Shown in pieces: positions 1 through 22,405 of a DNA stretch of 32,000 bases; position 1 is the stretch's first letter, and every line of letters starts with the position of its first letter. The position numbers and the translations under genes were made by a program. The DNA lies in NCBI GenBank assembly GCA_000166095.1, contig CP002278.1:1200001-1232000 (forward strand), in the 5' to 3' direction. This DNA comes from Methanothermus fervidus DSM 2088. Lineage in GTDB: Archaea > Methanobacteriota > Methanobacteria > DSM-2088 > Methanothermaceae. A model generated the notes under the pieces. It ran no database searches. It was not told the origin of the DNA and saw only the letters and a list, made by a program, of their open reading frames with translations.

Positions 1-1151
1 TGTGTAATTTTAATCAAAACTTTGGCGTTAGGATCTATTTTTTTCATGTCGGCCTTTCCATTGTTTTTGACCATTGCCTTTATTTTTCCATCACATATTT
101 CAATATCTTCAATTGTTAAATCAACAATTAATGGTTTGTAATCTAAATTAACTTTATTATATGTGTAGGGGATATCTCCAATTCCATCTCCATCGCTATC
201 GTTCCCAAAATAATCTAACCAGTAATTACCTTCGTTAGTAGTGTTCCAATAGTTATTTAATAACTCACCATCTACAGCAATCGAATTATTTAAGAAATAA
301 TTTTTGTATACATAATTTTTTATTCCCTGGATGGAGAGCCCATATTCACAATTTGTAATAGTATTTAAGCAAATTATATTGTTTGTACAGCCGGTTTTGA
401 GTGATATTCCTTTATTGCACCCAGCTATATAATTATCAGAAATAGTACAGTTTCTTGCCCCTCCTGTTGCACCGAGATATATACCATTGAAGCTACATAA
501 GAGAACAACATTTTTTTGGATAATACAGTTATTAGCACAATCAAGGGCAATTCCACATTTACATGATCTAATTATATTTTCAGATATTTCACAAGAATCA
601 GTGGATCCACCTAATGTTCCTAAATGTATTCCCGCATATTTACATTTCATAATATTATTTCCAATTATCTTGTAATTTTTTGAAAATCCATAAGTAAATA
701 TTCCTCCAATGATGGTATTATTTTCTATTTTCCAATCCCTTGTGGTTCCATTGATACATATACCACTTCCTGGTTCCTCAGCAGATGTATAAATTATGTT
801 GTTCCGTATTACACAATTACTTGCATTTAACGCCATTATGGCATAAATACCATTCGTATTAATAATGAAACCTTCTATTGTTATATTATCTGTATTTATG
901 TAAATAGTGGGAATTGATGGATCCTTAGCTATTATTTTTGCTTTCCCATCGCCTTCCAATGTTATAGATTTGTTAATAACAATGTTTTCACAATATTCTC
1001 CAGGCTTAACAAAAATAATATGCCCATCTTTTGTATCATAATCATCTATTGCAGACTGAATTGACGTAAATGTTTTGTTGTTATTTAGATTTACAACTTC
1101 TGCATGAGCTATAGAAGTTCCTAAAAAACAGATTAAAGCAATAATTAACAT
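1..1151 (-). CDS. Secreted right-handed parallel beta-helix protein (NosD/CASH/PbH1-repeat type) followed by a CARDB-like domain; 3' end lies beyond the window
   Basis: Not in the supplied ORF track because it runs off the left edge. I translated the minus strand from the ATG at 1151-1149 down to position 2 and found no stop. N-terminus MLIIALICFLGTSIAHA/EVV looks like a signal peptide. It is followed by repeated short N/G/I/C-rich turns (NCVIRNNII, CEISENIIRSCKCGIAL, NCIIQKNVV, NCTISDNYIAGCNKGISL, NNIICLNTITNCEYGLSI), then NYWLDYFGNDSDGDGIGDIPY, then DLTIEDIEICDGKIKAMVKNNGKAD (CARDB-like). GGAGGTG lies 17 nt upstream of the ATG. An in-frame ATT 5 nt after the RBS would add a KKI n-region, so the exact start is uncertain. 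Confidence 0.7.
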   Translation of the reverse strand, partial: MLIIALICFLGTSIAHAEVVNLNNNKTFTSIQSAIDDYDTKDGHIIFVKPGEYCENIVINKSITLEGDGKAKIIAKDPSIPTIYINTDNITIEGFIINTNGIYAIMALNASNCVIRNNIIYTSAEEPGSGICINGTTRDWKIENNTIIGGIFTYGFSKNYKIIGNNIMKCKYAGIHLGTLGGSTDSCEISENIIRSCKCGIALDCANNCIIQKNVVLLCSFNGIYLGATGGARNCTISDNYIAGCNKGISLKTGCTNNIICLNTITNCEYGLSIQGIKNYVYKNYFLNNSIAVDGELLNNYWNTTNEGNYWLDYFGNDSDGDGIGDIPYTYNKVNLDYKPLIVDLTIEDIEICDGKIKAMVKNNGKADMKKIDPNAKVLIKIT

Positions 1152-1208: not shown

Positions 1209-1216
1209 TTTATATA
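1209..1216. promoter_or_regulatory. Archaeal TATA box (TTTATATA) in the divergent intergenic region between the beta-helix gene and the CobN-like gene
   Basis: TTTATATA at 1209-1216 is preceded by a purine-rich AGAAAAC (BRE-like) and lies about 55 nt upstream of the 1271 ATG, which has a GGTGA RBS at 1262-1266. The element is near-palindromic (TATATATA). A second TATAAAT is readable on the minus strand near 1192-1200, so the 119-bp spacer probably carries both divergent promoters. Confidence 0.35.
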
Positions 1217-1270
1217 TAACTTTCTTGAGATATATTCAAATAGTTTTGAAAATAGATAAATGGTGAGAAA

Positions 1271-4200
1271 ATGAAGGCAAAATCATTTTTAATAATACTT
1301 ACATTGATTATAGCTTTCATCATTAATATTTCACCAGTTTTAGGAATAGAAGTCAAAGGATCTGTGAAGGAAATTTATAATGAAACATCGGACACATACG
1401 TAACTTTAGAAAATGCAATACCTGTCAAAGATGCTAATATAACTTTAATAAAAGACAATGTTGTCCTAAATAAAACTACAACTGATAACAATGGGAAATA
1501 TTTAATAACAGCAAATGCTACTCCGCCCTTAATACTAAAAATAGAATATTCAACATATAAACCAGCGATATTTACTGTAAATAAAGATTGTGAAATAAAT
1601 CATGTTTTTATTCCAGATATTGTAATAATAGGTTGTCCAAAACCATTTGGAGTAGAATTAAGTAAGAGATTAATGTTTTATGATCCTTGGATGCCTGGAG
1701 CTGAAAAAGATTGTTGGATTTTAGAACATGCAAATTTTGCTTTTTTATACATGCAAACACCAGGTACCGGTCAGAAAGACTTTTGGATTCAATATCTTGG
1801 TAATAGTCCTGCTAATAAAACAGGACATATAGCTGCATATGCTGGAATGGGAGAAGAAAGGTATTTCAACATAATTGGGGGTAGTAAAAATTCACTAGAA
1901 AATACATATCTTGCCAGTTATTATGTTTTGGCATCTGGAAATGCTACAAAGATTAATTATGATAGAATGGTCAAATACATAAGTTATTTATTAAATGAAA
2001 CAACTTACAATCCAATAGAGCACGATGAAGTTCCCATATTTGCTGGTGGAGGTACAGCAGGCAGTTGGGGATTATATCATCCTGATCTTGGAACAAGAAC
2101 AGTGTTAGGATATAATTTAACACAACCTAGCCCTAAACAAATAAAACAATGGATAGAGGAGAATCCTGGGTTAGCAATTTCTGGTAACTTAAAATGGCTA
2201 GCAAAATTAAATATGTATCTTGTTTCATCTGGTTTTGCAAAACTTTGTGAAGATTTTGAGAACTGGTATAATAATAATAAACCAAATCTTAAAGGGCCTT
2301 TTATAGTGGTTGTAAGTTATTGGCCAGGTGGTCAAAAAGACCCTACTATAGACATGCTGATTAGAGAATTGGAAAAAAGAGGTAGGCCTGCATTTGATTT
2401 ATATCAGATTGAAACACAGCCACCAGCTAGTAAACTACTGGAATTGATGGTTAAAGGCATTAATGGAACTGGTTTCATAAAAAGAGGAATATCTGCTGTT
2501 ATATCTTTAGTAAGCTGGTCTTTAAACTATGATAATTTACCAGAAGGTGCTGTAAAGGAATATTTAAACATGAATATTCCTATAATTAAAGGAATGGAGT
2601 TGTGGACAAATAATGGTTTAGAAAATCCATTAGGAACGCAGTTTGAATTAACATGGCAAATGGGACTACCATATCGTGAAGGTGTATTTGGTCCTACGCC
2701 AGTGAGTTATAGAGATGAAAGAAGTGGAAGATATATACCAATTGAGACTGGCATTAAGAAAATTGTTGACAATGCAATAAAATGGGCAAAACTAAGAGAA
2801 ATTCCAAATAAAGACAAAAGAATAGCTATAATTATTTACAATTATCCTCCAGGAAAAGATAATTTTGTTGCTTCTTACTTAGACGTTTTCAAAAGTATCC
2901 ATGATCTACTCACAAGACTAAAGGAACTTGGTTATAGTGTTAGTGAAATACCTACACCTGAGGAATTATACAATATAGTGGCTGAAGGTGGAAACAAAGG
3001 TACATGGGCTCAACCTGCACTTGAGAAGTATGTAGATAAAAATTGGAAAAGATTAATGGAAAATAATCAATTAATACCCTTGAATAAATATTTAGAATGG
3101 TTTAATCAATTACCAGATCCAATGAAAAGGAATATAACAGGAAAATGGGGAGAACCTCCTGGAAATATAATGACTGTCACAAGAAATGGCACTAAATACA
3201 TAGTAATTCCAGGCGTAAAACTTGGAAATATATTCATTGCAATACAACCAAGTAGAGGTTGGGAAGAAGTTAAAGATTATCATGATCCTTATTTACCACC
3301 ACATCATCAATATGTTGCATTCTACAAATGGTTGGAAGAAAACTTCGATGCAATGATACATCTTGGTACTCATGGAACATTAGAGTGGTTACCTGGAAGA
3401 ACAACAGGAGTTATAGATTCTGATTATCCATTCCAACTTACATGCTTACCAAACATTTATCCATACATAGTTTCAAATCCAGGAGAAGGTCTTGTTGCTA
3501 AAGATAGAAGTTTTGCAGTAATAATTGATCACATGACGCCTGCTATGGTAGAAAGTGGTTTATATGGAAATCTTTCTGAATTACATGATCTAATACATAG
3601 ATATAATGCAGCATTAGAAGCAGGTGCTTCACAACTATTACCAGAATTAGAAAAAGAAATAATAGAGAAGGCTGCTTCATTAGGATTCAAAAAAGAAGGT
3701 AATTTCACAGATTGGCTTAGAGAATTACATATTCAACTGCATGAAATAGAGAATGATGTTATACCTTTAGGATTACATAGTCTAGGAAAAATACTGGAAG
3801 GAGATGAACTTGTTGAAGAACTATATACAATAGCATCTTCAAGAAGCGACTTAATGGAAAATATAAAGAGAATGATGTATCCAGAAATAAAAGAGAGCTA
3901 CTACGACATAATGTATGATCCAAAATATGAAGACAAAGTCGAAAAAATTAAAGAAAAAGCGAAAGAATGGATAAGAAATATCATAAATGGCAATATACCT
4001 CCAGAAATTAAACCTGATGATTTAAAATTCATAAATGAAACTTTAACAAAAATTAGAGCCAATGAAGAATGGCAAAACCTACTAAATGCATTATCAGGTG
4101 GTTATGTACCTCCCGGACTTGCAGGAGATCCTGCAAGGAGCGATGTTTTACCAACTGGAAGAAACTTTTATCCTTATGATGTTAAAAAAATGCCAACAAA

Positions 4201-5872
4201 AGCTGCATGGGAGTCTGCAAAAAAAATTGTTGATGACATGTTAAGAAAATATTATAAAGAACATGGAAAATTCCCAGAATTAGTTGGAATGGTAATGTGG
4301 GGTACAGAATTACTAAGAACTGAAGCACTTGCAATAGCTGAATTTATGTATCTTTTAGGTGTAAAACCAGATTGGGCACCAAATGGAGACGTTAAAGGTG
4401 TAGTTTTAATGGATCCATCAGAATTTGCAATTGAAATTGATGGTAAAAAAATAATTAGGCCAAGAATAGATGTTTTTACAACTGCTGTGACATATAATCA
4501 AGCATGGATTGATCTAATGAATAAAGCTGTTGAACTAGCTAGCGAAGCTAAAGATGTTGAAAATTATGTTGCTAAACATTATAAAGAATGTAATTCTCTT
4601 GATAGAGTTTTCGGTTTAAGAGGTTATGTATTAGAAGGAACTGGTGTTTGTGATTTGGTTCCACAAACAGGAAAATGGAACACAACTAAAGAGTTGGCAG
4701 ATGTTTATCTTTCTAGAGTTTCTTATGCATGGAAATCTGTTAATGGCGTAATGCAAATGAAACAAAATAAGGACGTATTCCAATATCTATTAAAGAAAAT
4801 GGATATCGCAACACAAACAATCGATAGTACTTGGAGACTTTTTGACACAGACGACTATTATGACTGGTATGGTGGATTAATATTGGCATCAAAGACTTTA
4901 GGTGGAAATCCAGAAACAATGCTCCAAGACATTAGGAATTTAAAATTTACTCAAATAAGATCTCTAAAGGAAGAAGTAGAATTAGAAATAAGATCACAGG
5001 TGTTAAATCCAAAATACATGGAATCATTGCTTAAAACTCCTAGTGGTTGGATGGAATATGCAAAAAGATATGAATACACGGTTGGTATTCATGTAACAAC
5101 AAATTCAGTAAGCAATGAATTATGGAACAAACTAGGAGAAAACTTAATAATGAATTTAAACCCTAAAACAAATTATGAAGCATTTGCAACACAATCAATG
5201 ATTGCATGGGTCCTAGAAATGGAAAGAAGGTCATTAGCATCTCTAAGACCTGAATTAAAAGTTGCCCTTGCTAATAAATATATAACTTTAGCCGTTAAAT
5301 ATGGACCAGTATGTTGTCACCATACATGTGCAAATATAAACTTTAATCTTTGGGTAATTCAAACATCTAACTTACCTCTATCATACCTCCAAAAATTCGC
5401 AGCCGCATTTGCAGAAACTACTGGAGTTAAGTTATCAATTCCAGGAGCTCCAACAACACCACAACCTTCAGTCCCTGGAATATCAATAACAGTCCCTGGA
5501 ATTCCAACATCCATTCCAGGAGCACCATCACAACTAGGAGCTCCAACTGCATTAGGAAGAGTAGGAATTGGAACTGCAGCAACAAGGGGAGTTTCACCAG
5601 GAATTTCAGGTCCTTCAGGTAGAGTTGGCGGTGAAATTGGTACAAGAGGAGCAGCTCAAGCTGCTGGAGCTGCAAGTAAATCCTCATCAGAATCAGGTGC
5701 TACAGGTAAAGCAGGAATTACAGGTGCTGCAGCAGGAAAAGCATATGAGATTACACCAGTGTCTAAAGGAATTGGAAGTCCATCATCAGTGCCATTCGCA
5801 GGAATAATCGGAGTTATAATATTGATTGCATTAATAGCAGTAGGATATCTATTGAGAAGGCCTAAATATTAG
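1271..5872 (+). CDS. CobN/BchH-family chelatase-like protein, predicted extracellular: signal peptide + CarboxypepD_reg-like beta-sandwich + CobN core + P/G/A/S-rich linker + C-terminal TM anchor
   Basis: 1533-aa ORF. CobN-family signature stretches are present: MIHLGTHGTLEWLPGR, SDVLPTGRNFYPYD, and ALAIAEFMYLLGVKP with IRPRIDVF. The N-terminus MKAKSFLIILTLIIAFIINISPVLG/IEV has the n-h-c organisation of a signal peptide. Residues about 26-112 (TTTDNNGKYLITA...YKPAIFTV) look like a carboxypeptidase-regulatory-like domain. The C-terminus is ...SSVPFAGIIGVIILIALIAVGYLLRRPKY. Confidence 0.85.
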   Translation: MKAKSFLIILTLIIAFIINISPVLGIEVKGSVKEIYNETSDTYVTLENAIPVKDANITLIKDNVVLNKTTTDNNGKYLITANATPPLILKIEYSTYKPAIFTVNKDCEINHVFIPDIVIIGCPKPFGVELSKRLMFYDPWMPGAEKDCWILEHANFAFLYMQTPGTGQKDFWIQYLGNSPANKTGHIAAYAGMGEERYFNIIGGSKNSLENTYLASYYVLASGNATKINYDRMVKYISYLLNETTYNPIEHDEVPIFAGGGTAGSWGLYHPDLGTRTVLGYNLTQPSPKQIKQWIEENPGLAISGNLKWLAKLNMYLVSSGFAKLCEDFENWYNNNKPNLKGPFIVVVSYWPGGQKDPTIDMLIRELEKRGRPAFDLYQIETQPPASKLLELMVKGINGTGFIKRGISAVISLVSWSLNYDNLPEGAVKEYLNMNIPIIKGMELWTNNGLENPLGTQFELTWQMGLPYREGVFGPTPVSYRDERSGRYIPIETGIKKIVDNAIKWAKLREIPNKDKRIAIIIYNYPPGKDNFVASYLDVFKSIHDLLTRLKELGYSVSEIPTPEELYNIVAEGGNKGTWAQPALEKYVDKNWKRLMENNQLIPLNKYLEWFNQLPDPMKRNITGKWGEPPGNIMTVTRNGTKYIVIPGVKLGNIFIAIQPSRGWEEVKDYHDPYLPPHHQYVAFYKWLEENFDAMIHLGTHGTLEWLPGRTTGVIDSDYPFQLTCLPNIYPYIVSNPGEGLVAKDRSFAVIIDHMTPAMVESGLYGNLSELHDLIHRYNAALEAGASQLLPELEKEIIEKAASLGFKKEGNFTDWLRELHIQLHEIENDVIPLGLHSLGKILEGDELVEELYTIASSRSDLMENIKRMMYPEIKESYYDIMYDPKYEDKVEKIKEKAKEWIRNIINGNIPPEIKPDDLKFINETLTKIRANEEWQNLLNALSGGYVPPGLAGDPARSDVLPTGRNFYPYDVKKMPTKAAWESAKKIVDDMLRKYYKEHGKFPELVGMVMWGTELLRTEALAIAEFMYLLGVKPDWAPNGDVKGVVLMDPSEFAIEIDGKKIIRPRIDVFTTAVTYNQAWIDLMNKAVELASEAKDVENYVAKHYKECNSLDRVFGLRGYVLEGTGVCDLVPQTGKWNTTKELADVYLSRVSYAWKSVNGVMQMKQNKDVFQYLLKKMDIATQTIDSTWRLFDTDDYYDWYGGLILASKTLGGNPETMLQDIRNLKFTQIRSLKEEVELEIRSQVLNPKYMESLLKTPSGWMEYAKRYEYTVGIHVTTNSVSNELWNKLGENLIMNLNPKTNYEAFATQSMIAWVLEMERRSLASLRPELKVALANKYITLAVKYGPVCCHHTCANINFNLWVIQTSNLPLSYLQKFAAAFAETTGVKLSIPGAPTTPQPSVPGISITVPGIPTSIPGAPSQLGAPTALGRVGIGTAATRGVSPGISGPSGRVGGEIGTRGAAQAAGAASKSSSESGATGKAGITGAAAGKAYEITPVSKGIGSPSSVPFAGIIGVIILIALIAVGYLLRRPKY
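5430..5790 (+). repeat. Low-complexity, GC-enriched P/G/A/S/T-rich linker-coding region with imperfect short repeats (xPGxP units)
   Basis: The DNA repeats attccaggagc(t/a)cca and gtccctggaat. The protein reads IPGAPTTPQPSVPGISITVPGIPTSIPGAPSQLGAPTALG..., followed by G/A/S/T-rich sequence. Lack of stop codons here creates shadow ORFs in other frames (5427..5687 -, 5568..5807 +). Confidence 0.6.
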
Positions 5873-5901: not shown

Positions 5902-6306
5902 TCAAAAAGTTCCAAAAATTTTGTGATAATAATTTACAGCTTTCATTGGACAGGTTATCACACAACATCCACATCCAACACATTTTTCATCGTCTATTTC
6001 AACTGTCCAGTCATCTTTTATACTTATAGCTCCAACAGGACAAATTGAAACACATGCTCCACAATCAATACACTTTTCTTTGTCTTTCCTCACAACGTCC
6101 TTTGCAATCTCAACAATTATTCCCCTATTTTTTAGGTATTCTATACTTTCCTTTTTTCTTTTACCTAATATTTCAGCTAAAATTTTACCGCCACTTGATG
6201 TAATATGGGCATGCAAAATATTAAAATCTATGTCATATTTTTTTATTGCGTCGGATATAACAGGTTTTTTTATTATTTCTTTTGAAAAATATAACCATAC
6301 TCTCAT
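5902..6306 (-). CDS. NIL domain + 2x[4Fe-4S] ferredoxin-domain protein, partner of the COG1900 homocysteine-biosynthesis enzyme (MA1822/MJ0099 type)
   Basis: The N-terminal half ([33 protein letters not shown]) is NIL-like. Two ferredoxin cysteine motifs are present: [12 protein letters not shown] and [12 protein letters not shown]. The gene lies immediately downstream of the COG1900 gene, overlapping it by 4 nt. Confidence 0.8.
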
Positions 6307-7835
6307 TTCTTTTCCCTACCAATTATACGTGATATATCTTCAGCAGTAACTATTCCTATTACTCTATTATCTTTATCGACAACTGGAAGTCCTGAAATGT
6401 TATATTTATCCATACGACGTGCAGCGACATCTATTGGCTCATTTTCTTTAGCAGTTATTACCCTTTTTGTCATGATTTCTTCTAATTTTTTAGTACCTTC
6501 AGCAACAGCATTTGCTATATCCCATGATGTAACTATTCCCCTAAGTTTATTATTTTTGTCAACTATTGGAACATGATTTATATTATTTTCCACAATTTTC
6601 TTTGCCACACTTTCCACACTTTCTGAAATACTAGCTACAATGGCAGGCTTGGTCTCAACATCTTTAACCAGTATTAATGGTTTTTTAATTTTCAGTGGTT
6701 TTAATTCCTTAGGTTTTTTAGGTAGAGGTTTTACATATTCTGACAGTGTAAATTCTCCTTTTTCTATCAATTTTTTTAATTCTTCAGCAACTTCCATCGC
6801 CATCTTATAAGATGATAAAGGTGATGTTGGTACTTCCTTATCATCTATAATTACTTTTCCAGATTTTAATTCCTCATAATTTGTTTCAGCAACTACAGGT
6901 CTATCTCTACTTGGCACGCCATAGTCAATTATCTTACACTTTATATCTTTATCACTTACTCCAGTTCTTAAGGCAATTTTTTCATTTAAGACAGGAATTG
7001 GTATTCCAACTCCTAAATAAATTGTTGGTCCATACTTATGTATAGTAGCTCCTCTTACAAACTTAGGATCCATGTCTTTCATGTCCGCTTTTAGCATTAA
7101 TGTTCCTGCAGGAGAAACTGGGATATCTTTGTGTCTTTCTACGCCAACTCTATGTTGTGTTCCCTCTCCAACAACATATCCTTGAGCACCTGCAAGAAAT
7201 ACTTTTGTTCCTATTCCTATACATTCAAAATATGGATCATTGAGCAGTGGACTTAATTCACCTGCGCTTGAGTAGGTTACATTGCCAAAATTGGGAAGTA
7301 AGGTACCCATATAGGTATATAGTGTTTCATTGCTAGAATTAGTTGCGGCAGCATAATTTTGGTAACAATTTCTTGGGTTTACCATTATTGCTTGGTTTAT
7401 TTCAGATAAAGAAATTGCAGTTTCTATTTTTTTTAATGGATAACAATCTGTTCCAAAACCTTCTGCCACAAGTTCAACTTCTTTGCCTTTTATAAGGTCC
7501 TCTATTACGTGGCCTCCACCATAATCAAATTTTTTTTCAGGATCAATATTAGGTTGTGCAGCACCTATATAAATATCTACAGCAGCTATACCAGCGTAAG
7601 CCTCTACTCCATTCAAATAAGCCCTTTTAATTTTTATTGGAGGTTCTGCATGGCCTAAATTTAAAAATGCTCCTGAAGAACACATTGCACCAAAAGTTCC
7701 AGTAGTAACTACATCAATTTCTTTAGCAGCTTTTTTTGCGCCATCATCTCTTACAATTTCAACCATTTCAGATGCTGTAACTACTACTGCATCTCCATTT
7801 TTTATTTTTTGGTTTATTTCTTCTAATGATTTCAA
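6303..7835 (-). CDS. L-aspartate-semialdehyde sulfurtransferase / homocysteine biosynthesis protein (COG1900, DUF39) with two C-terminal CBS domains (MJ0100/MA1821 type)
   Basis: 510 aa. [37 protein letters not shown] and [22 protein letters not shown] match my memory of the MJ0100 family. The C-terminal [18 protein letters not shown] and [19 protein letters not shown] form a CBS pair. Confidence 0.85.
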
Positions 7836-19324: not shown

Positions 19325-19330
19325 TAAAAA
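19323..19330 (-). terminator. Oligo-T tract (TTTTTATT on the minus strand) directly after the tRNA 3' end
   Basis: The plus strand reads aataaaaa at 19323-19330, giving T5 immediately after the discriminator base. It overlaps the stop codon of the GalU-like gene on the other strand. Confidence 0.4.
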
Positions 19331-19404
19331 TCCCGGCTGCCGGATTTGAACCGGCGACCCGCGGATCTACAGTCCGCCGCTCTACCAGACTGAGCTAAGC
19401 CGGG
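19331..19404 (-). tRNA. tRNA-Tyr (anticodon GTA), 74 nt, no intron, CCA not encoded
   Basis: The minus strand folds as a cloverleaf. Acceptor CCCGGCT/AGCCGGG; D arm GCTC-AGTCTGGTA-GAGC; anticodon arm GCGGA-CTGTAGA-TCCGC (anticodon GTA); variable GGGTC; T arm GCCGG-TTCAAAT-CCGGC; discriminator A. The C1:G72 pair is the archaeal tRNA-Tyr identity pair. Confidence 0.9.
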
Positions 19405-19425
19405 ATATCTTTACTCACAAGATAT

Positions 19426-19458: not shown

Positions 19459-20649
19459 TCATGTAATCAATGCATAAATCAATGACAATATTATTGCTAT
19501 AACACCTAATTCCCATCTTCCAATTTGCCATCCAATAAAAGTCATTAAAAAGACAAAAATAAAAATCAAAATTCCTTCTCCCTTCCTATTCAATGCAAAA
19601 TTTATTAAAGTTCTAGTGAAATCTGAAGGAATAAAATAAGCATAAGTACCATTTGCAAGATTAAAAACTACTGTAGAGCTTGGATGCCAAAACTTTACAT
19701 CATCAGATAAATATGCATTTTCACCAGCTTCTTTCCTAGTTTTACCTACTCCAGCCCTTATTTTAACATCGTTTACTTGACTTTCCCAAATTGCTTCTAA
19801 TATTGCTTGTAATGCTAAATCTTTTGTTGGCATACTTGCAACCAAATCATCGCCACCTTTACGATAACCTTCTATTTTTCCTTCTCGTTCTTCGATTCTT
19901 TTCTTTATTTTTTCCATCACTAAACTTAAAAAGTCTCTACCATATTTCTCAATAAATTTTGTGGAATTTATTACATCAAGAAAAAGATAATTGCCATGAG
20001 TAGAATATGTTTCACCAATTTTTGAAATTTTTGATGGAAAGAGAAGTGCAAATTCCCCACCAAATTTTGTAAAAGCCACTCCTGGTATTTCACCGACTTC
20101 ATTAGTTAACTTTATAGCTCTTTCTACAGCTGCTGCAGCGGTCATTCCTACGGCAGCCCGCACATTTAAATTTTTCTCACCACCCAATGCTATAAGCTTT
20201 ATTGCTATTTTTATTGCTTCATTTTTTGATATTAATCTTGCTAATATTTCATTAGGACCTTTTTCTACAATTTCTCCTCCTTCATTTTTGATTGTATCAA
20301 TAAATTCATTCACATCAGCTTTTTCTGGAAGTTCAACATATAGATATCTATCACTGCCAACAATTATATCACTTAAAAGTGCACGTTCATTTATATCTTT
20401 CTCAGGTTTTTTTAATTCAACAAATCTACCATTTCGAGGCAAAGCAAAATTTAGTTCTTCAACTAAACTTTCAAATATGCTATTAGAATCAATTTTTGCC
20501 TTTTTAAGTTCTATCAACATAGTTTTTGTATCGTTCATCATTTTAACATATTTTTCTTCGTCTTCTGTAGTTGGACGATAATCAGTCCCAATACTAATAA
20601 TCCTTTTTCCAATAAAAAAACTTAAAATAAAGCGTAGGATCCTACCCAT
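19459..20649 (-). CDS. Membrane-anchored protein with two tandem GGDEF/Cas10-palm-like (nucleotidyl cyclase fold) modules, the second with a GGDD motif; two C-terminal TM helices
   Basis: Residues 219-303 (GNYLFLDVINSTKFIEKYGRDF...GYRKGGDDLVASMP...VKIRAGVGKT) align by eye with the GGDEF-domain order LDIDhFKxiND..G...R.GGEEF..lmP...isiGv. Residues 100-170 (RYLYVEL...EKGPNEILARL...NVRAAVGMT) repeat the same order without the acidic motif. GGT GGC GAT GAT was verified at 19846-19857. The C-terminal GILIFIFVFLMTFIGWQIG and LGVIAIILSLIYALIT are hydrophobic helices. The CDS call is strong; the functional call is inference. Confidence 0.55.
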   Translation of the reverse strand: MGRILRFILSFFIGKRIISIGTDYRPTTEDEEKYVKMMNDTKTMLIELKKAKIDSNSIFESLVEELNFALPRNGRFVELKKPEKDINERALLSDIIVGSDRYLYVELPEKADVNEFIDTIKNEGGEIVEKGPNEILARLISKNEAIKIAIKLIALGGEKNLNVRAAVGMTAAAAVERAIKLTNEVGEIPGVAFTKFGGEFALLFPSKISKIGETYSTHGNYLFLDVINSTKFIEKYGRDFLSLVMEKIKKRIEEREGKIEGYRKGGDDLVASMPTKDLALQAILEAIWESQVNDVKIRAGVGKTRKEAGENAYLSDDVKFWHPSSTVVFNLANGTYAYFIPSDFTRTLINFALNRKGEGILIFIFVFLMTFIGWQIGRWELGVIAIILSLIYALIT

Positions 20650-21669
20650 CTACTTTTGTCCTCCTTTTTCCAATGTAACCTCAAATTCACCAGGATTTTC
20701 AAGTAATACACTAGGTCTCACAGCAACTATTGGAAATCTCCAACTACCAATTCTTGCGGCAATTGTACTTGCTATATTCCTGGAATTCCTTTTTACCAAA
20801 GCATAATCATGATTATTAACTGTTATATTGACATTGTATGGTGATTCTTCCATTACATCTTCTGAAGGCAACACATTTAATTCAAAATGGTTTTTCCGCA
20901 TGAAAATATCATTTCTAACAGCTACAAGTGGACTATATTCTAATTCTAAATTATCTCTGACAGTTACAGCTATGTTGCCAGCATATTTAACAACTTTTTT
21001 ATAATCTTGTGGATTAACAAGAACAAATATTATATAGTTTCCTTCTTCAATATTTTCAACCATCTCTAGAACATTTTTTAAGACAGGAATTTTCATGAAC
21101 ACTTCTTCAACTTTTGACTCTAATCCTTCCTCATAAACCTTAATTCTACTTATAGCTTCTTTAGCTATTGCTATGCCACTAAGCTTTTTCCCATGTCTTA
21201 CATTATAGTAATCAAAACCTTTGTCTTTAAATTTGTTTAAAGCATCTAAAGTGATTTCTTTTATTATGTCTTTGACCTTCCTTACTTTTGGAATCTTTCC
21301 AATTACTATTTTATTATTTTCAAATGTGTAGGGAACTCTTCTACTATCAATATTTTTAAATTCATCTCTAAACTCTCTAAAATTGTCATTTGACAATATT
21401 TTTGCATCTTCTTCTTCTGCCAACTTTAAAATATAATGATCTGCATTTGTACCTGCAGGTACTTCCTTAATTATCCCCTTTTTTATGTATTCCTTATATT
21501 TCTCTTCATCATCAATCTTATGTTTCAAAGAAGCGTCAGCAACGACTATCGGTTTAAAACCAAGTTTTTTTACAGCCTTTATAGCTTCGATAATTCTTTT
21601 CATTATCGCCTTATTCTGATGGTGGGCAATATTTGATGCATCTATAATCATTTTCAATGGATCACCCAT
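20650..21669 (-). CDS. Zc3h12a-like NYN/PIN-type ribonuclease domain protein with an uncharacterised ~190-aa C-terminal region
   Basis: The N-terminal region reads KMIIDASNIAH...GFKPIVVADASLKHKID...GTNADHYILKLAEEEDAKILSNDNFREF. This matches the acidic-residue pattern of the RNase_Zc3h12a/NYN fold (D at strand 1, DxxxD-like, SNDxxR). I recognise no motif in the rest. Confidence 0.65.
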   Translation of the reverse strand: MGDPLKMIIDASNIAHHQNKAIMKRIIEAIKAVKKLGFKPIVVADASLKHKIDDEEKYKEYIKKGIIKEVPAGTNADHYILKLAEEEDAKILSNDNFREFRDEFKNIDSRRVPYTFENNKIVIGKIPKVRKVKDIIKEITLDALNKFKDKGFDYYNVRHGKKLSGIAIAKEAISRIKVYEEGLESKVEEVFMKIPVLKNVLEMVENIEEGNYIIFVLVNPQDYKKVVKYAGNIAVTVRDNLELEYSPLVAVRNDIFMRKNHFELNVLPSEDVMEESPYNVNITVNNHDYALVKRNSRNIASTIAARIGSWRFPIVAVRPSVLLENPGEFEVTLEKGGQK

Positions 21670-22405
21670 TTTTTCTTTTATATTTACCTAATATTTTCAT
21701 TTTTCCTTCTACTTCACATAATTTTACTTTTATTTCTTTCTCATTCACCAAATACACATTATAACTATTTGGATTTTTTGCTCTAAGTGATGGAGATGAA
21801 ACTGTACCTGCAGTTGCAAAAACACAACCTTCTAAATTCCATGAATATGGTACATGTCTATGTCCACAAACAACAAGATCCACATCGTATTTAACTAAAG
21901 ATTCTAGAATATCACCAGCGTCAAGAAGTACATTTCTTTCTCGTCCTGTTTTTGGAACGGGGATGATATGATGATGCAAGGCTACAATTTTGAATTTATT
22001 TTTTGCTTTTTTCAATTCTTTTTCAAGCCATTTTTGCTGTTCTCTTCCTATCTTTCCACAATCTAAATCAGGTTCACTACTGTCAAGTCCAATAACAACA
22101 AACTTTTTATTCTTATTTTTAAGAACACCTGATCTTGGACCAATAACTTCTTCAAATACTTCATAACCTACGTGTCTAGCATCATGATTTCCTGGTACAG
22201 TTATAGTAGGTATAATCTCTGAAATTTCATCTAAATATTTTTTTGCTTCTATAAATTCCTGATAATAACCATTGTTTGTTATATCTCCACTTACAATAAC
22301 TACATCAGGGCGGATGTTTTTAACCTGGTTCAGAGCTTTTTTTAATAATTTTTCCTTAAATTTGAATTCACCCACATGAAAATCTGAAAGGTGGGCAATT
22401 ATCAA
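21662..22405 (-). CDS. Calcineurin-like metallophosphoesterase, CpdA/Icc-like (class III phosphodiesterase-type motif set)
   Basis: The motifs are in canonical order: HLSDFH, VVIVSGDITNNG, VPGNHD, ALHHH, VVCGHRHVP. It uses a TTG start abutting the NAC stop (TAATTG). The substrate cannot be inferred from sequence. Confidence 0.75.
   Translation of the reverse strand: MIIAHLSDFHVGEFKFKEKLLKKALNQVKNIRPDVVIVSGDITNNGYYQEFIEAKKYLDEISEIIPTITVPGNHDARHVGYEVFEEVIGPRSGVLKNKNKKFVVIGLDSSEPDLDCGKIGREQQKWLEKELKKAKNKFKIVALHHHIIPVPKTGRERNVLLDAGDILESLVKYDVDLVVCGHRHVPYSWNLEGCVFATAGTVSSPSLRAKNPNSYNVYLVNEKEIKVKLCEVEGKMKILGKYKRKNG

Follow-up and report, generated by a model that had tools for sequence, protein, structure and literature searches.

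The stretch analyzed here, hereafter the window, comprises 32,000 nucleotides of the Methanothermus fervidus DSM 2088 genome (GCA_000166095.1, contig CP002278.1, positions 1,200,001 to 1,232,000). A single open reading frame (ORF) of 1533 amino acids (aa) occupies positions 1271-5872 of its forward strand. An initial annotation, made from the sequence alone, had proposed that this frame encodes a homolog of the CobN/BchH chelatases displayed outside the cell, and the frame was indeed found to be open over all 1533 codons. The Shine-Dalgarno-like GGTGA that precedes the ATG by 5 nt supports position 1271 as the true start. Here, the product is described as an exported, C-terminally anchored member of the CobN/ChlH/HmuS superfamily (Table 1), which is not the cobaltochelatase of the cobalamin pathway.

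Table 1. Coordinates of the CobN-like gene, its upstream signals and the regions and motifs of its product (positions in the window)
Feature	Position	Strand	Basis
Archaeal TATA box TTTATATA	1209..1216	+	Read off the sequence
Shine-Dalgarno-like GGTGA, 5 nt before the ATG	1262..1266	+	Read off the sequence
Whole ORF, exported and C-terminally anchored protein of the CobN/ChlH/HmuS superfamily	1271..5872	+	1533 aa
Sec-type signal peptide, aa 1-25 (MKAK, hydrophobic core, SPVLG|I)	1271..1345	+	Hydropathy; alignment with ortholog signal peptides
N-terminal beta-sandwich, aa 26 to ~120, CnaB/carboxypeptidase-regulatory-like, 4 sequons	1346..1630	+	AlphaFold2, Foldseek, weak Pfam matches
Head and neck, chelatase domains I-II, aa ~121-500	1631..2770	+	Foldseek of the AlphaFold2 model
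Chelatase body, domains III-VI, aa ~501-1384, with a C-terminal helical extension common to HmuS	2771..5422	+	Pfam PF02514; PDB matches
HLGTHGTLEWLPG, aa 697-709; H701 = HmuS His-538, E705 = ChlH Glu-625	3359..3397	+	Invariant in 13 relatives; ChlH/CobN alignments; HmuS paper
SNPGE, aa 735-739; E739 = ChlH Glu-660	3473..3487	+	Invariant; the 6yt0 E660D variant aligns here
LPTGRNFYPYD, aa 960-970, conserved domain-V motif of the superfamily	4148..4180	+	Sequence; alignments
DTDDYYDW, aa 1192-1199, at the site of HmuS LSLDH(1209)xxE(1212)FMGG	4844..4867	+	HMMER alignment to 9d26; invariant in the family
CCHHTC, aa 1348-1353, Cys/His cluster beyond the Pfam domain	5312..5329	+	Invariant; aligns with HmuS CSGFVC
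Low-complexity G/A/S/P/T-rich linker, aa 1385-1499	5423..5767	+	Composition
C-terminal transmembrane helix F1509-L1528, preceded by conserved P1508 and with G1525-Y1526 at its end	5795..5854	+	Hydropathy; invariant P, G, Y
Basic tail RRPKY, predicted cytoplasmic	5855..5869	+	Positive-inside rule

Only two hydrophobic segments were found in the protein by a Kyte-Doolittle scan, one at residues 1 to ~25 and the other at ~1500-1531. The N-terminus (MKAK + SFLIILTLIIAFIINI + SPVLG|IEV) shows the n/h/c organization of Sec signal peptides and aligns with ortholog signal peptides ending in ...SA|AEVNG; no lipobox Cys is present in it. Cleavage would fall at G25|I26, a position taken from this alignment and not from a dedicated predictor. 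At the other end, a linker of 115 aa (G23, A18, S14, P13, T11, and zero sequons) leads into the last 34 residues (...SSVP-FAGIIGVIILIALIAVGYLL-RRPKY), which form a transmembrane (TM) helix and a basic tail. The signal peptide, the linker, the TM helix and the basic tail had all been recognized in the initial annotation, and each was recovered here. Both hydrophobic ends have positively charged neighbors (MKAK... and ...RRPKY), and the bulk of the protein is therefore expected outside, with or without cleavage of the signal peptide. At the C-terminus, the pattern [MV]P-x-TM-GY-x-[RK] occurs in 81 of 95 CobN-like ORFs, as against one of 91 neighboring adhesin-like ORFs, and the last 75 aa match no NCBIfam CTERM model for archaeosortase-type sorting signals (PGF-CTERM and relatives), even at E <= 10.

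The N-terminus had also been described as dense in N-x-S/T sequons, which the counts bear out. There are 16 sequons, compared with 9.5 +/- 2.8 in shuffled sequences (P about 0.02), and half of them (8/16) lie within residues 26-325. The sequon density is 1.04 per 100 aa, versus 0.45 in 13 cytoplasmic-looking ORFs of the window, or ~2.3 times as high. The enrichment is therefore real, if modest. One of the sequons originally listed, NIS at N19, sits inside the signal peptide and cannot count; N37 (NET) is kept as a sequon in 8 of 13 relatives.

In an AlphaFold2 model of residues 26-520, built with nine sequences (pLDDT 82.5), residues 26 to ~120 form a confident all-beta domain, with pLDDT above 90 there. 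Foldseek matched this domain to CnaB/carboxypeptidase-regulatory-type domains in surface proteins of bacteria and animals, among them UafA, SdrD, teneurin and domain II of carboxypeptidase D, in keeping with the beta-sandwich that had been proposed from the sequence; the CarboxypepD_reg matches in Pfam are weak and under the curated cut-off. The rest of the model matches the CobN/ChlH head and neck (7c6o, E = 2.9e-7; 4zhj, E = 3.5e-7), a region for which the sequence search against PDB chains returned no similarity to solved structures before residue ~427. For the body, the model is of medium quality (pLDDT 70, pTM 0.49) and was used only for fold ranking, where HmuS (9d26) came first by a small margin (E = 2.9e-38, TM 0.54), and for placing the Cys motif in a loop.

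The chelatase core itself is well conserved. The Pfam model CobN-Mg_chel (PF02514) matches residues 322-1322 (E = 1.8e-231) and is covered from position 50 to 1082 of 1090. Both core motifs quoted in the initial annotation are present, namely HLGTHGTLEWLPGR at aa 697-710 and LPTGRNFYPYD. H701 and E705 belong to HLGTHGTLE, the HxG(T/A)HG motif of the superfamily with its superfamily-wide His. In an alignment of 13 members, H701, E705, E739, the LPTG motif, DTDDYYDW, CCHHTC, P1508, G1525 and Y1526 are all invariant, and the first three do not vary across the Methanothermobacter, Methanobacterium and Methanobrevibacter orthologs. Since the domain-III residues (H701, E705, E739) and the acidic domain-V motif are intact, the protein is predicted to be an active enzyme. 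In the model, the CCHHTC cluster falls in an interhelical loop of the C-terminal helical bundle, and it is a candidate site of metal hand-off. The protein shares with CobN of CobNST (7c6o, 9uk9) and ChlH/BchH (4zhj) the PF02514 match over the body, the HxGTHGxxExxPG, NPxE and LPTGxN motifs, and the head-and-neck fold; unlike it, those proteins are soluble, cytoplasmic, driven by AAA+ partners and ATP, lack a signal peptide, an anchor and the Cys motif, and have a C-terminus of the type ...LLEA.RG.W...LEG.IEE.

The position of the protein within the superfamily was examined by an exhaustive HMMER search with the core over 1.8 billion representatives, which returned 3732 relatives; architectures were compared in the best 150. 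Two architectures are prominent among these 150. Proteins of the first are cytoplasmic, with no hydrophobic ends and a C-terminus of the form ...LLEA.RG.W...LEG.IEE, and those of the second have a signal peptide or N-terminal TM helix, a C-terminal TM helix, and a Cys motif right before the linker. The Cys motif (CCHHTC, CC[DE]HTC, CCDCSC or C-x4-C-x-N) is found in none of the 58 cytoplasmic representatives and in most of the anchored ones. On a tree of 145 CobN cores (neighbor-joining, distance-based and midpoint-rooted, with deep branching that is not to be trusted), anchoring requires 8 changes versus ~48 with shuffled labels, and the cytoplasmic proteins form one contiguous block. Anchored and cytoplasmic CobN-like proteins thus separate on this tree. 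By these comparisons, the window protein is placed in a large exported, membrane-anchored branch of the CobN superfamily, of which HmuS is the only characterized member.

These results bear directly on the database name. RefSeq calls the relatives "cobaltochelatase subunit CobN," and both Pfam and NCBIfam CobN models match, as they would if the protein were the cytoplasmic cobaltochelatase subunit of cobalamin synthesis. The equivalog scores, however, are far under their cut-offs, both for CobN (TIGR02257, 469 vs 822; NF004645, 557 vs 1619; NF004644, 448 vs 1248) and for BchH/ChlH (TIGR02025, 503 vs 829; NF009140, 489 vs 1300), and the PDB sequence matches are nearly equidistant among ChlH (3e-101), Mycobacterium tuberculosis CobN (4e-95) and HmuS (9e-85). 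The topology, with a signal peptide and a C-terminal anchor, already contradicts a cytoplasmic role. When the remaining ORFs of the 32-kb window were scanned with Pfam, neither a ChlI/ChlD nor a CobS/CobT gene came up, as the initial annotation had stated for AAA+ partners. The cobN1-3 genes are the only CobN candidates of the best-studied relatives, in which CbiX is the cobalt chelatase of the anaerobic B12 route (Kaster et al.); Methanothermobacter makes B12 by that route with CbiX, and therefore no CobN is needed there. Furthermore, the authors of the Bacteroides thetaiotaomicron HmuS work note many archaeal homologs of unclear function that are not associated with cob genes. A role in cobalamin synthesis is accordingly very improbable, and the RefSeq name "cobaltochelatase CobN" is probably wrong.

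HmuS of B. thetaiotaomicron offers the closest characterized comparison. It is a membrane-bound, ATP-independent and NADH-dependent enzyme that converts heme into protoporphyrin IX and Fe(II) (PMC12583661, PMC13227078), so that the role in metalloporphyrin salvage which the initial annotation cited as a proposal for bacterial CobN-like proteins is now established for one of them. A single TM helix is predicted at each end of HmuS, and both were removed for cryo-EM (PDB 9d26/9p4s). Across its central cavity, an HFG(T/A)HG motif with the essential, superfamily-wide His-538 faces LSLDHxxEFMGG, whose His-1209 and Glu-1212 are specific to the HmuS family; a second heme is held by Met-79 and His-254 at the head/neck interface, and domain IV carries a Met-rich insertion. 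Published topology predictions and assays place HmuS in the periplasm (PMC12583661, PMC13227078), and a study in Porphyromonas gingivalis describes HmuS proteins with a signal peptide and N- and C-terminal helices that may function there.

The window protein resembles HmuS in its two-ended anchoring with the body outside the cytoplasmic membrane, in a CobN/ChlH-superfamily body of six-domain logic, in the superfamily His (H701 corresponding to His-538), and in a C-terminal extension that contains a Cys-x4-Cys element. Neither ATP nor an AAA+ partner is required by HmuS, and no gene for such a partner lies in the window. Over the C-terminal half, HmuS is the best PDB match, and the alignment runs on through an extension that ChlH and CobN lack, pairing CCHHTC with CSGFVC, a motif that is not discussed in the HmuS papers (PMC12583661, PMC13227078). 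Differences are also evident: the two proteins are only ~24% identical, and the archaeal one adds the beta-sandwich, the sequons and the 115-aa linker. Taken with the flanking charges, the recurrence of the architecture in relatives and the tree, the HmuS topology supports the proposal that the CobN-type head, neck and body all lie outside the cytoplasmic membrane, away from any cytoplasmic AAA+ motor. By analogy, the window protein probably acts in the same place and style as HmuS.

The architecture is not peculiar to M. fervidus. Relatives were collected as 76 matches of a word-index search and, from a scan of GTDB species genomes, as the best 80 of 138 loci; all those named are Methanobacteriales, except for one locus from a bin titled Acholeplasmatales. 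Identity to the window protein is 53-56% in Methanothermobacter, ~49% in Methanobacterium, and 35-40% in Methanobrevibacter and Methanosphaera. A 596-aa fragment on a low-coverage metagenome contig (ERZ3430508, 1970 bp; locus L087) is 99% identical, and the other relatives are at most 64% identical (L012, partial). Nearly all full-length relatives possess a signal peptide and an anchor made up of an S-rich stretch, [MV]P, ~20 hydrophobic residues, GY, and R or K; linker length differs between them. Those seeming to be without a signal peptide start at internal Met codons of truncated gene calls. The ortholog in Methanothermobacter marburgensis is CobN2 (cobN2, MTBMA_c09040, ADL58499 / D9PWA1), which is 53-56% identical over the full length and has the same domain order, motifs and anchor, and differs in being annotated as "predicted cobalamin biosynthesis protein N." The counterpart in M. 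thermautotrophicus is probably MTH514, judged by synteny with the Hmd-paralog gene, the locus tag having been read from gene order.

Other paralog types in the Methanobacteriales (P0118, P0341, P0273, P0229 and others) bear a signal peptide, a C-terminal anchor, or both; none of them is CobN1. Two further CobN-like proteins were seen in Methanobacterium. P0328 (Methanobacterium sp. MB1, 1401 aa), annotated as "protoporphyrin IX magnesium chelatase," has lost HxGTHG, the site reading FSIFSIVELMPG, and is an exported protein that keeps CCHHTC, the linker and the anchor; from its sequence, it may be a binding protein without catalytic function. P0110 (uncultured Methanobacterium, 3293 aa) is a giant surface protein whose CobN-like core occupies residues 2088-3110; it contains 93 sequons and has the C-terminal anchor as well. 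Evidently, N-terminal extensions of great length can be joined to the CobN-like module.

Genomic neighborhoods were compared by calling ORFs in 84 related loci and the window, clustering them by BLASTP, and annotating the recurrent clusters. The only neighbors conserved across genera form a same-strand trio directly downstream, encoding DUF2162 ("predicted transporter"), a protein of the MotA/ExbB proton-channel family, and DUF2149. This triad directly follows the ortholog or its tandem array in 17 of the 84 related loci. Among loci with enough flank, it is present in 7/7 from Methanobacterium and 6/8 from other Methanobacteriaceae-type metagenome-assembled genomes (one of them Methanoflexus), in 4/44 from Methanobrevibacter, and in neither Methanothermobacter (0/2) nor Methanosphaera (0/2). 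The window gene is an ordinary member of the Methanobacteriales exported CobN-like group and is without the linked trio. In the Methanobacterium loci, L007, L009, L014 and L017 among them, tandem arrays of 2-4 exported CobN-like paralogs on one strand precede the triad, an arrangement that suggests diversified substrate specificity.

The triad also adjoins very distant bacterial exported homologs, with overlapping ORFs in one case. In Bacteroidota, hmuS is followed by hmuT (a hypothetical membrane protein or permease), hmuU (MotA/TolQ/ExbB) and hmuV (DUF2149). The archaeal order is therefore that of hmuS-T-U-V without the outer-membrane parts, with DUF2162 as the putative counterpart of HmuT. 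Within the hmuYRSTUV operon, hmuS differs from the window gene, which has no adjacent T-U-V-like triad; nor is there an HmuY or HmuR on the archaeal side, which has no outer membrane. Archaea of this kind have neither an outer membrane nor TonB-dependent receptors, and hence the view that HmuU and HmuV merely power the receptor HmuR cannot explain the archaeal linkage.

Two other kinds of neighbor recur. A divergent DUF1002 gene is found in 43 Methanobrevibacter loci as a lineage-specific neighbor. Adhesin-like beta-helix/Big proteins flank the orthologs in 59 of the 84 related loci; they were considered as functional partners and rejected, being very abundant in such genomes and lacking the CobN-type C-terminal anchor. 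Their adjacency is treated as clustering of surface proteins and not as functional partnership.

Published proteomes of M. marburgensis under nickel limitation (PMC12350162 and source data) allow the expression of the ortholog to be followed. CobN2 was detected in all conditions; it dropped from ~1e7 to ~1e6 or below under Ni limitation and from ~5e7 to ~6e6 under Fe limitation, with little change under H2/CO2 limitation. In the same data, the paralog CobN1 rose ~300-fold under Ni limitation, and the "transporter" highlighted by the authors, MTBMA_c10530, rose ~40-fold (PMC12350162). We identify MTBMA_c10530 as a MotA/ExbB-family protein (locus L085, CP001710). This locus comprises, in order, two nicotianamine-synthase-like genes, the FmdE-domain protein c10580 (964 aa), a small ORF, a split CobN-like gene (c10560/c10550), DUF2162 (c10540), MotA_ExbB (c10530) and DUF2149; c10580 was ~300-fold up under Ni limitation, and c10540 was detected only then (PMC12350162). 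The literature offered nothing usable on DUF2162 or on nicotianamine in Methanothermobacter.

In M. marburgensis, then, nickel starvation evokes a response that includes a CobN-like/triad module. It could be argued from this that the window protein serves in nickel acquisition, taking Ni from environmental chelates, the more so as all of the nickel-responsive genes except CobN1 share the one locus with the nicotianamine-synthase-like genes. The direct ortholog of the window protein behaves oppositely, however, going down and not up when Ni is limiting, and we regard a dedicated role in nickel acquisition as improbable.

The reading that we favor, with about an even chance of being right, is that the protein is an active, ATP-independent (de)chelatase of the cell surface which serves in metal or tetrapyrrole acquisition. 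The protein would be exported by way of its Sec signal peptide and probably N-glycosylated, and the single C-terminal TM helix and long flexible linker would hold it to the membrane. Its body would be situated in or beyond the pseudomurein wall, since the linker, probably long enough to span that wall, could let the body reach through. The central cavity would bind a metal chelate, most likely a metallated tetrapyrrole, and the metal would be removed or exchanged without ATP, as HmuS does with heme. The CCHHTC loop, which immediately precedes the linker at the foot of the body, may receive the metal, after which the metal or the macrocycle would be handed to a membrane importer. In relatives, the importer and its energizer would be the permease-like DUF2162, the MotA/ExbB proton channel and DUF2149, which may supply proton-motive energy; for the window gene, whose triad is not adjacent, these proteins would act in trans, if present at all. 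The architecture, its conservation, the family placement, the triad linkage in relatives and the expression of the ortholog are matters of direct observation, and from there we infer catalysis, its direction, the type of substrate and the coupling to the triad.

Several observations weigh against an active surface (de)chelatase, some of them only against its closest likeness to HmuS. At the site of the HmuS motif LSLDHxxEFMGG, the HMMER alignment reads LFDTDDYYDWYGG, with His-1209 replaced by Asp-1195 and Glu-1212 by Asp-1198. There is no alignable counterpart of the heme-ligand pair Met-79/His-254 in the head and neck, where the N-terminal ~400 residues align to no solved chain and the AlphaFold2 model gives only the fold. 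The body model has low confidence in its active-site loops, and cleavage of the signal peptide and N-glycosylation are themselves matters that we infer. CobN2 falls 3- to 10-fold under Ni and Fe limitation, whereas a system that scavenges those metals would be expected to rise. Pfam scans and tblastn found no DUF2162, MotA_ExbB or DUF2149 gene in the window, and Methanothermobacter cobN2 is not adjacent to the triad either. No Met-rich insertion was found in the protein, which has 38 Met in 1533 aa and a maximum of 7 Met in any 120 aa.

Given that the HmuS motif is not conserved and that no heme-ligand pair can be aligned, dechelation of heme specifically is not supported. To our knowledge, the host has no heme requirement, and the substrate therefore probably differs from that of HmuS. 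By these sequence differences, the window protein is not of the HmuS family proper. The His-to-Asp change at 1195 was also considered as a mark of the exported clade and rejected: Asp is frequent at this position in cytoplasmic CobN-type proteins too, and Asp-1195 thus excludes HmuS membership and is not diagnostic of export.

The same residues help to weigh a non-catalytic role, in which the protein would be a surface receptor or binder that captures corrinoids, other tetrapyrroles or free Ni/Co, passing these on to a transporter with their metallation unchanged. The HmuS paper likens the class I chelatase head and neck to periplasmic binding proteins, and the P. gingivalis study offers a heme-shuttle role for HmuS as an alternative. 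Non-catalytic members do exist, as the exported P0328 has lost HxGTHG and kept the rest, and CCHHTC could be a simple metal-binding site. Nevertheless, none of H701, E705, E739 and the acidic domain-V motif varies within the ortholog group, at overall identities of ~38-58%, which suggests selection on catalysis and not on binding alone. We consider a binder to be clearly the less probable of the two roles, with perhaps a minor share of the total likelihood.

Alternatively, the enzyme may run in the forward direction outside the cell, inserting metal into a tetrapyrrole or other macrocycle, with proton-motive force acting through MotA/ExbB-DUF2149 in place of the AAA+ ATPase. Insertion is the classical activity of the superfamily, the proton-channel module is genetically linked in relatives, and the greater abundance of the ortholog in metal-replete than in metal-limited cells fits a metal-consuming role. 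Three points speak against such an enzyme: the sole characterized exported member, HmuS, runs in reverse and without ATP; the triad is not linked to the window gene; and we know of no extracellular metallated cofactor in the Methanobacteriales. A forward chelatase of this kind is therefore rather improbable.

A broader and more speculative proposal may be added to the surface (de)chelatase, though we think it unlikely to hold in full. The exported CobN-like proteins and the triad may be an ancient machine of bacteria and archaea, in which an ExbB/ExbD-like proton-driven stator replaces the AAA+ ChlI/ChlD motor as the power source for removing or inserting metal outside the cell, with the C-terminal TM helix (P...GY) as the coupling element. 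Paralogs in cytochrome-free methanogens would then divide among themselves the harvest of Ni, Co or Fe from chelates in the environment, and the window protein would be the isoform used when metal is plentiful. A comparative-genomics prediction reportedly exists for "BtuS," said to be a CobN-like chelatase of metalloporphyrin salvage in Gram-negative bacteria with TonB-dependent receptors, where CobN-like proteins beside transport genes were taken to serve salvage and not biosynthesis; it is mentioned as a lead only.

Around the CobN-like gene, the window (G+C ~31%) carries mostly housekeeping genes of Methanobacteriales type, such as HcyBio and NIL-ferredoxin, DUF2124, DUF447, ThiN, ArgJ and archaeosine TGT, and an IVYWREL-based estimate of growth temperature gives ~59 C as a rough figure, that of a moderately thermophilic host. 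Upstream and divergent lies a gene for a secreted NosD/right-handed beta-helix protein (3-1151, reverse strand), which runs off the start of the window and has the signal peptide MLIIALICFLGTSIAHA|E. Convergent with the CobN-like gene, on the reverse strand at 5902-7835, are genes for a 134-aa ferredoxin with a NIL domain and a 510-aa HcyBio/CBS protein, which we take to be the homocysteine-biosynthesis genes of methanogens; the pair seems ordinary and without relation to the CobN-like protein. Farther along the reverse strand, a 396-aa ORF without a Pfam match (19459-20649) lies downstream of genes for an NYN-domain RNase (20650-21669) and a metallophosphatase (21662-22405), with which it is probably co-transcribed, and a tRNA-Tyr gene is found at 19330-19405 on the same strand.

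An inverted-repeat scan detected a 28-bp near-palindrome (CAAGAAA-N14-TTTCTTG) at 1200-1227, with the TATA box of the CobN-like gene at its center, and from its sequence and position it could be a repressor operator. The region upstream of Methanothermobacter cobN2 contains a different palindrome (TTAAAGTTAACTTTAA), and comparison of the two regions revealed no obvious counterpart and no shared site. As the palindrome is not obviously common to the Methanothermobacter ortholog, no regulatory claim is made. Scans for sigma-70 promoters and intrinsic terminators, which are uninformative for an archaeon, gave as many matches as in shuffled sequences and were set aside.

Extracytoplasmic, membrane-anchored homologs of class I chelatases have been known since the HmuS work of 2024-2026, and archaeal homologs are in print as unexplained. 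New here are the layout of the Methanobacteriales proteins, set out explicitly (a beta-sandwich, sequons, a linker of wall length, a conserved anchor and a Cys/His motif), the failure of these proteins, by alignment, to match the HmuS-specific motif, the HmuTUV-like linkage in organisms without an outer membrane, and the connection of that module to a published nickel-limitation response.

The demand of methanogens for Ni, Co and Fe is unusually high, and how they acquire these metals from chelated environmental pools is poorly understood. The genomes of Methanobacteriales contain several large "CobN" genes that have no place in the anaerobic B12 pathway, and for these a testable frame is now available: surface tethering, an HmuS-like exported branch, and an HmuTUV-like module that accompanies many relatives and is nickel-responsive in M. 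marburgensis. Hundreds of RefSeq entries are thus probably misannotated as "cobaltochelatase subunit CobN." In rumen and gut Methanobrevibacter, conserved surface-exposed proteins of this kind are candidate targets for anti-methanogen vaccines or inhibitors. The main value of the finding lies in a testable hypothesis for the long-unexplained "CobN" genes of methanogens, together with a likely correction of their annotation.

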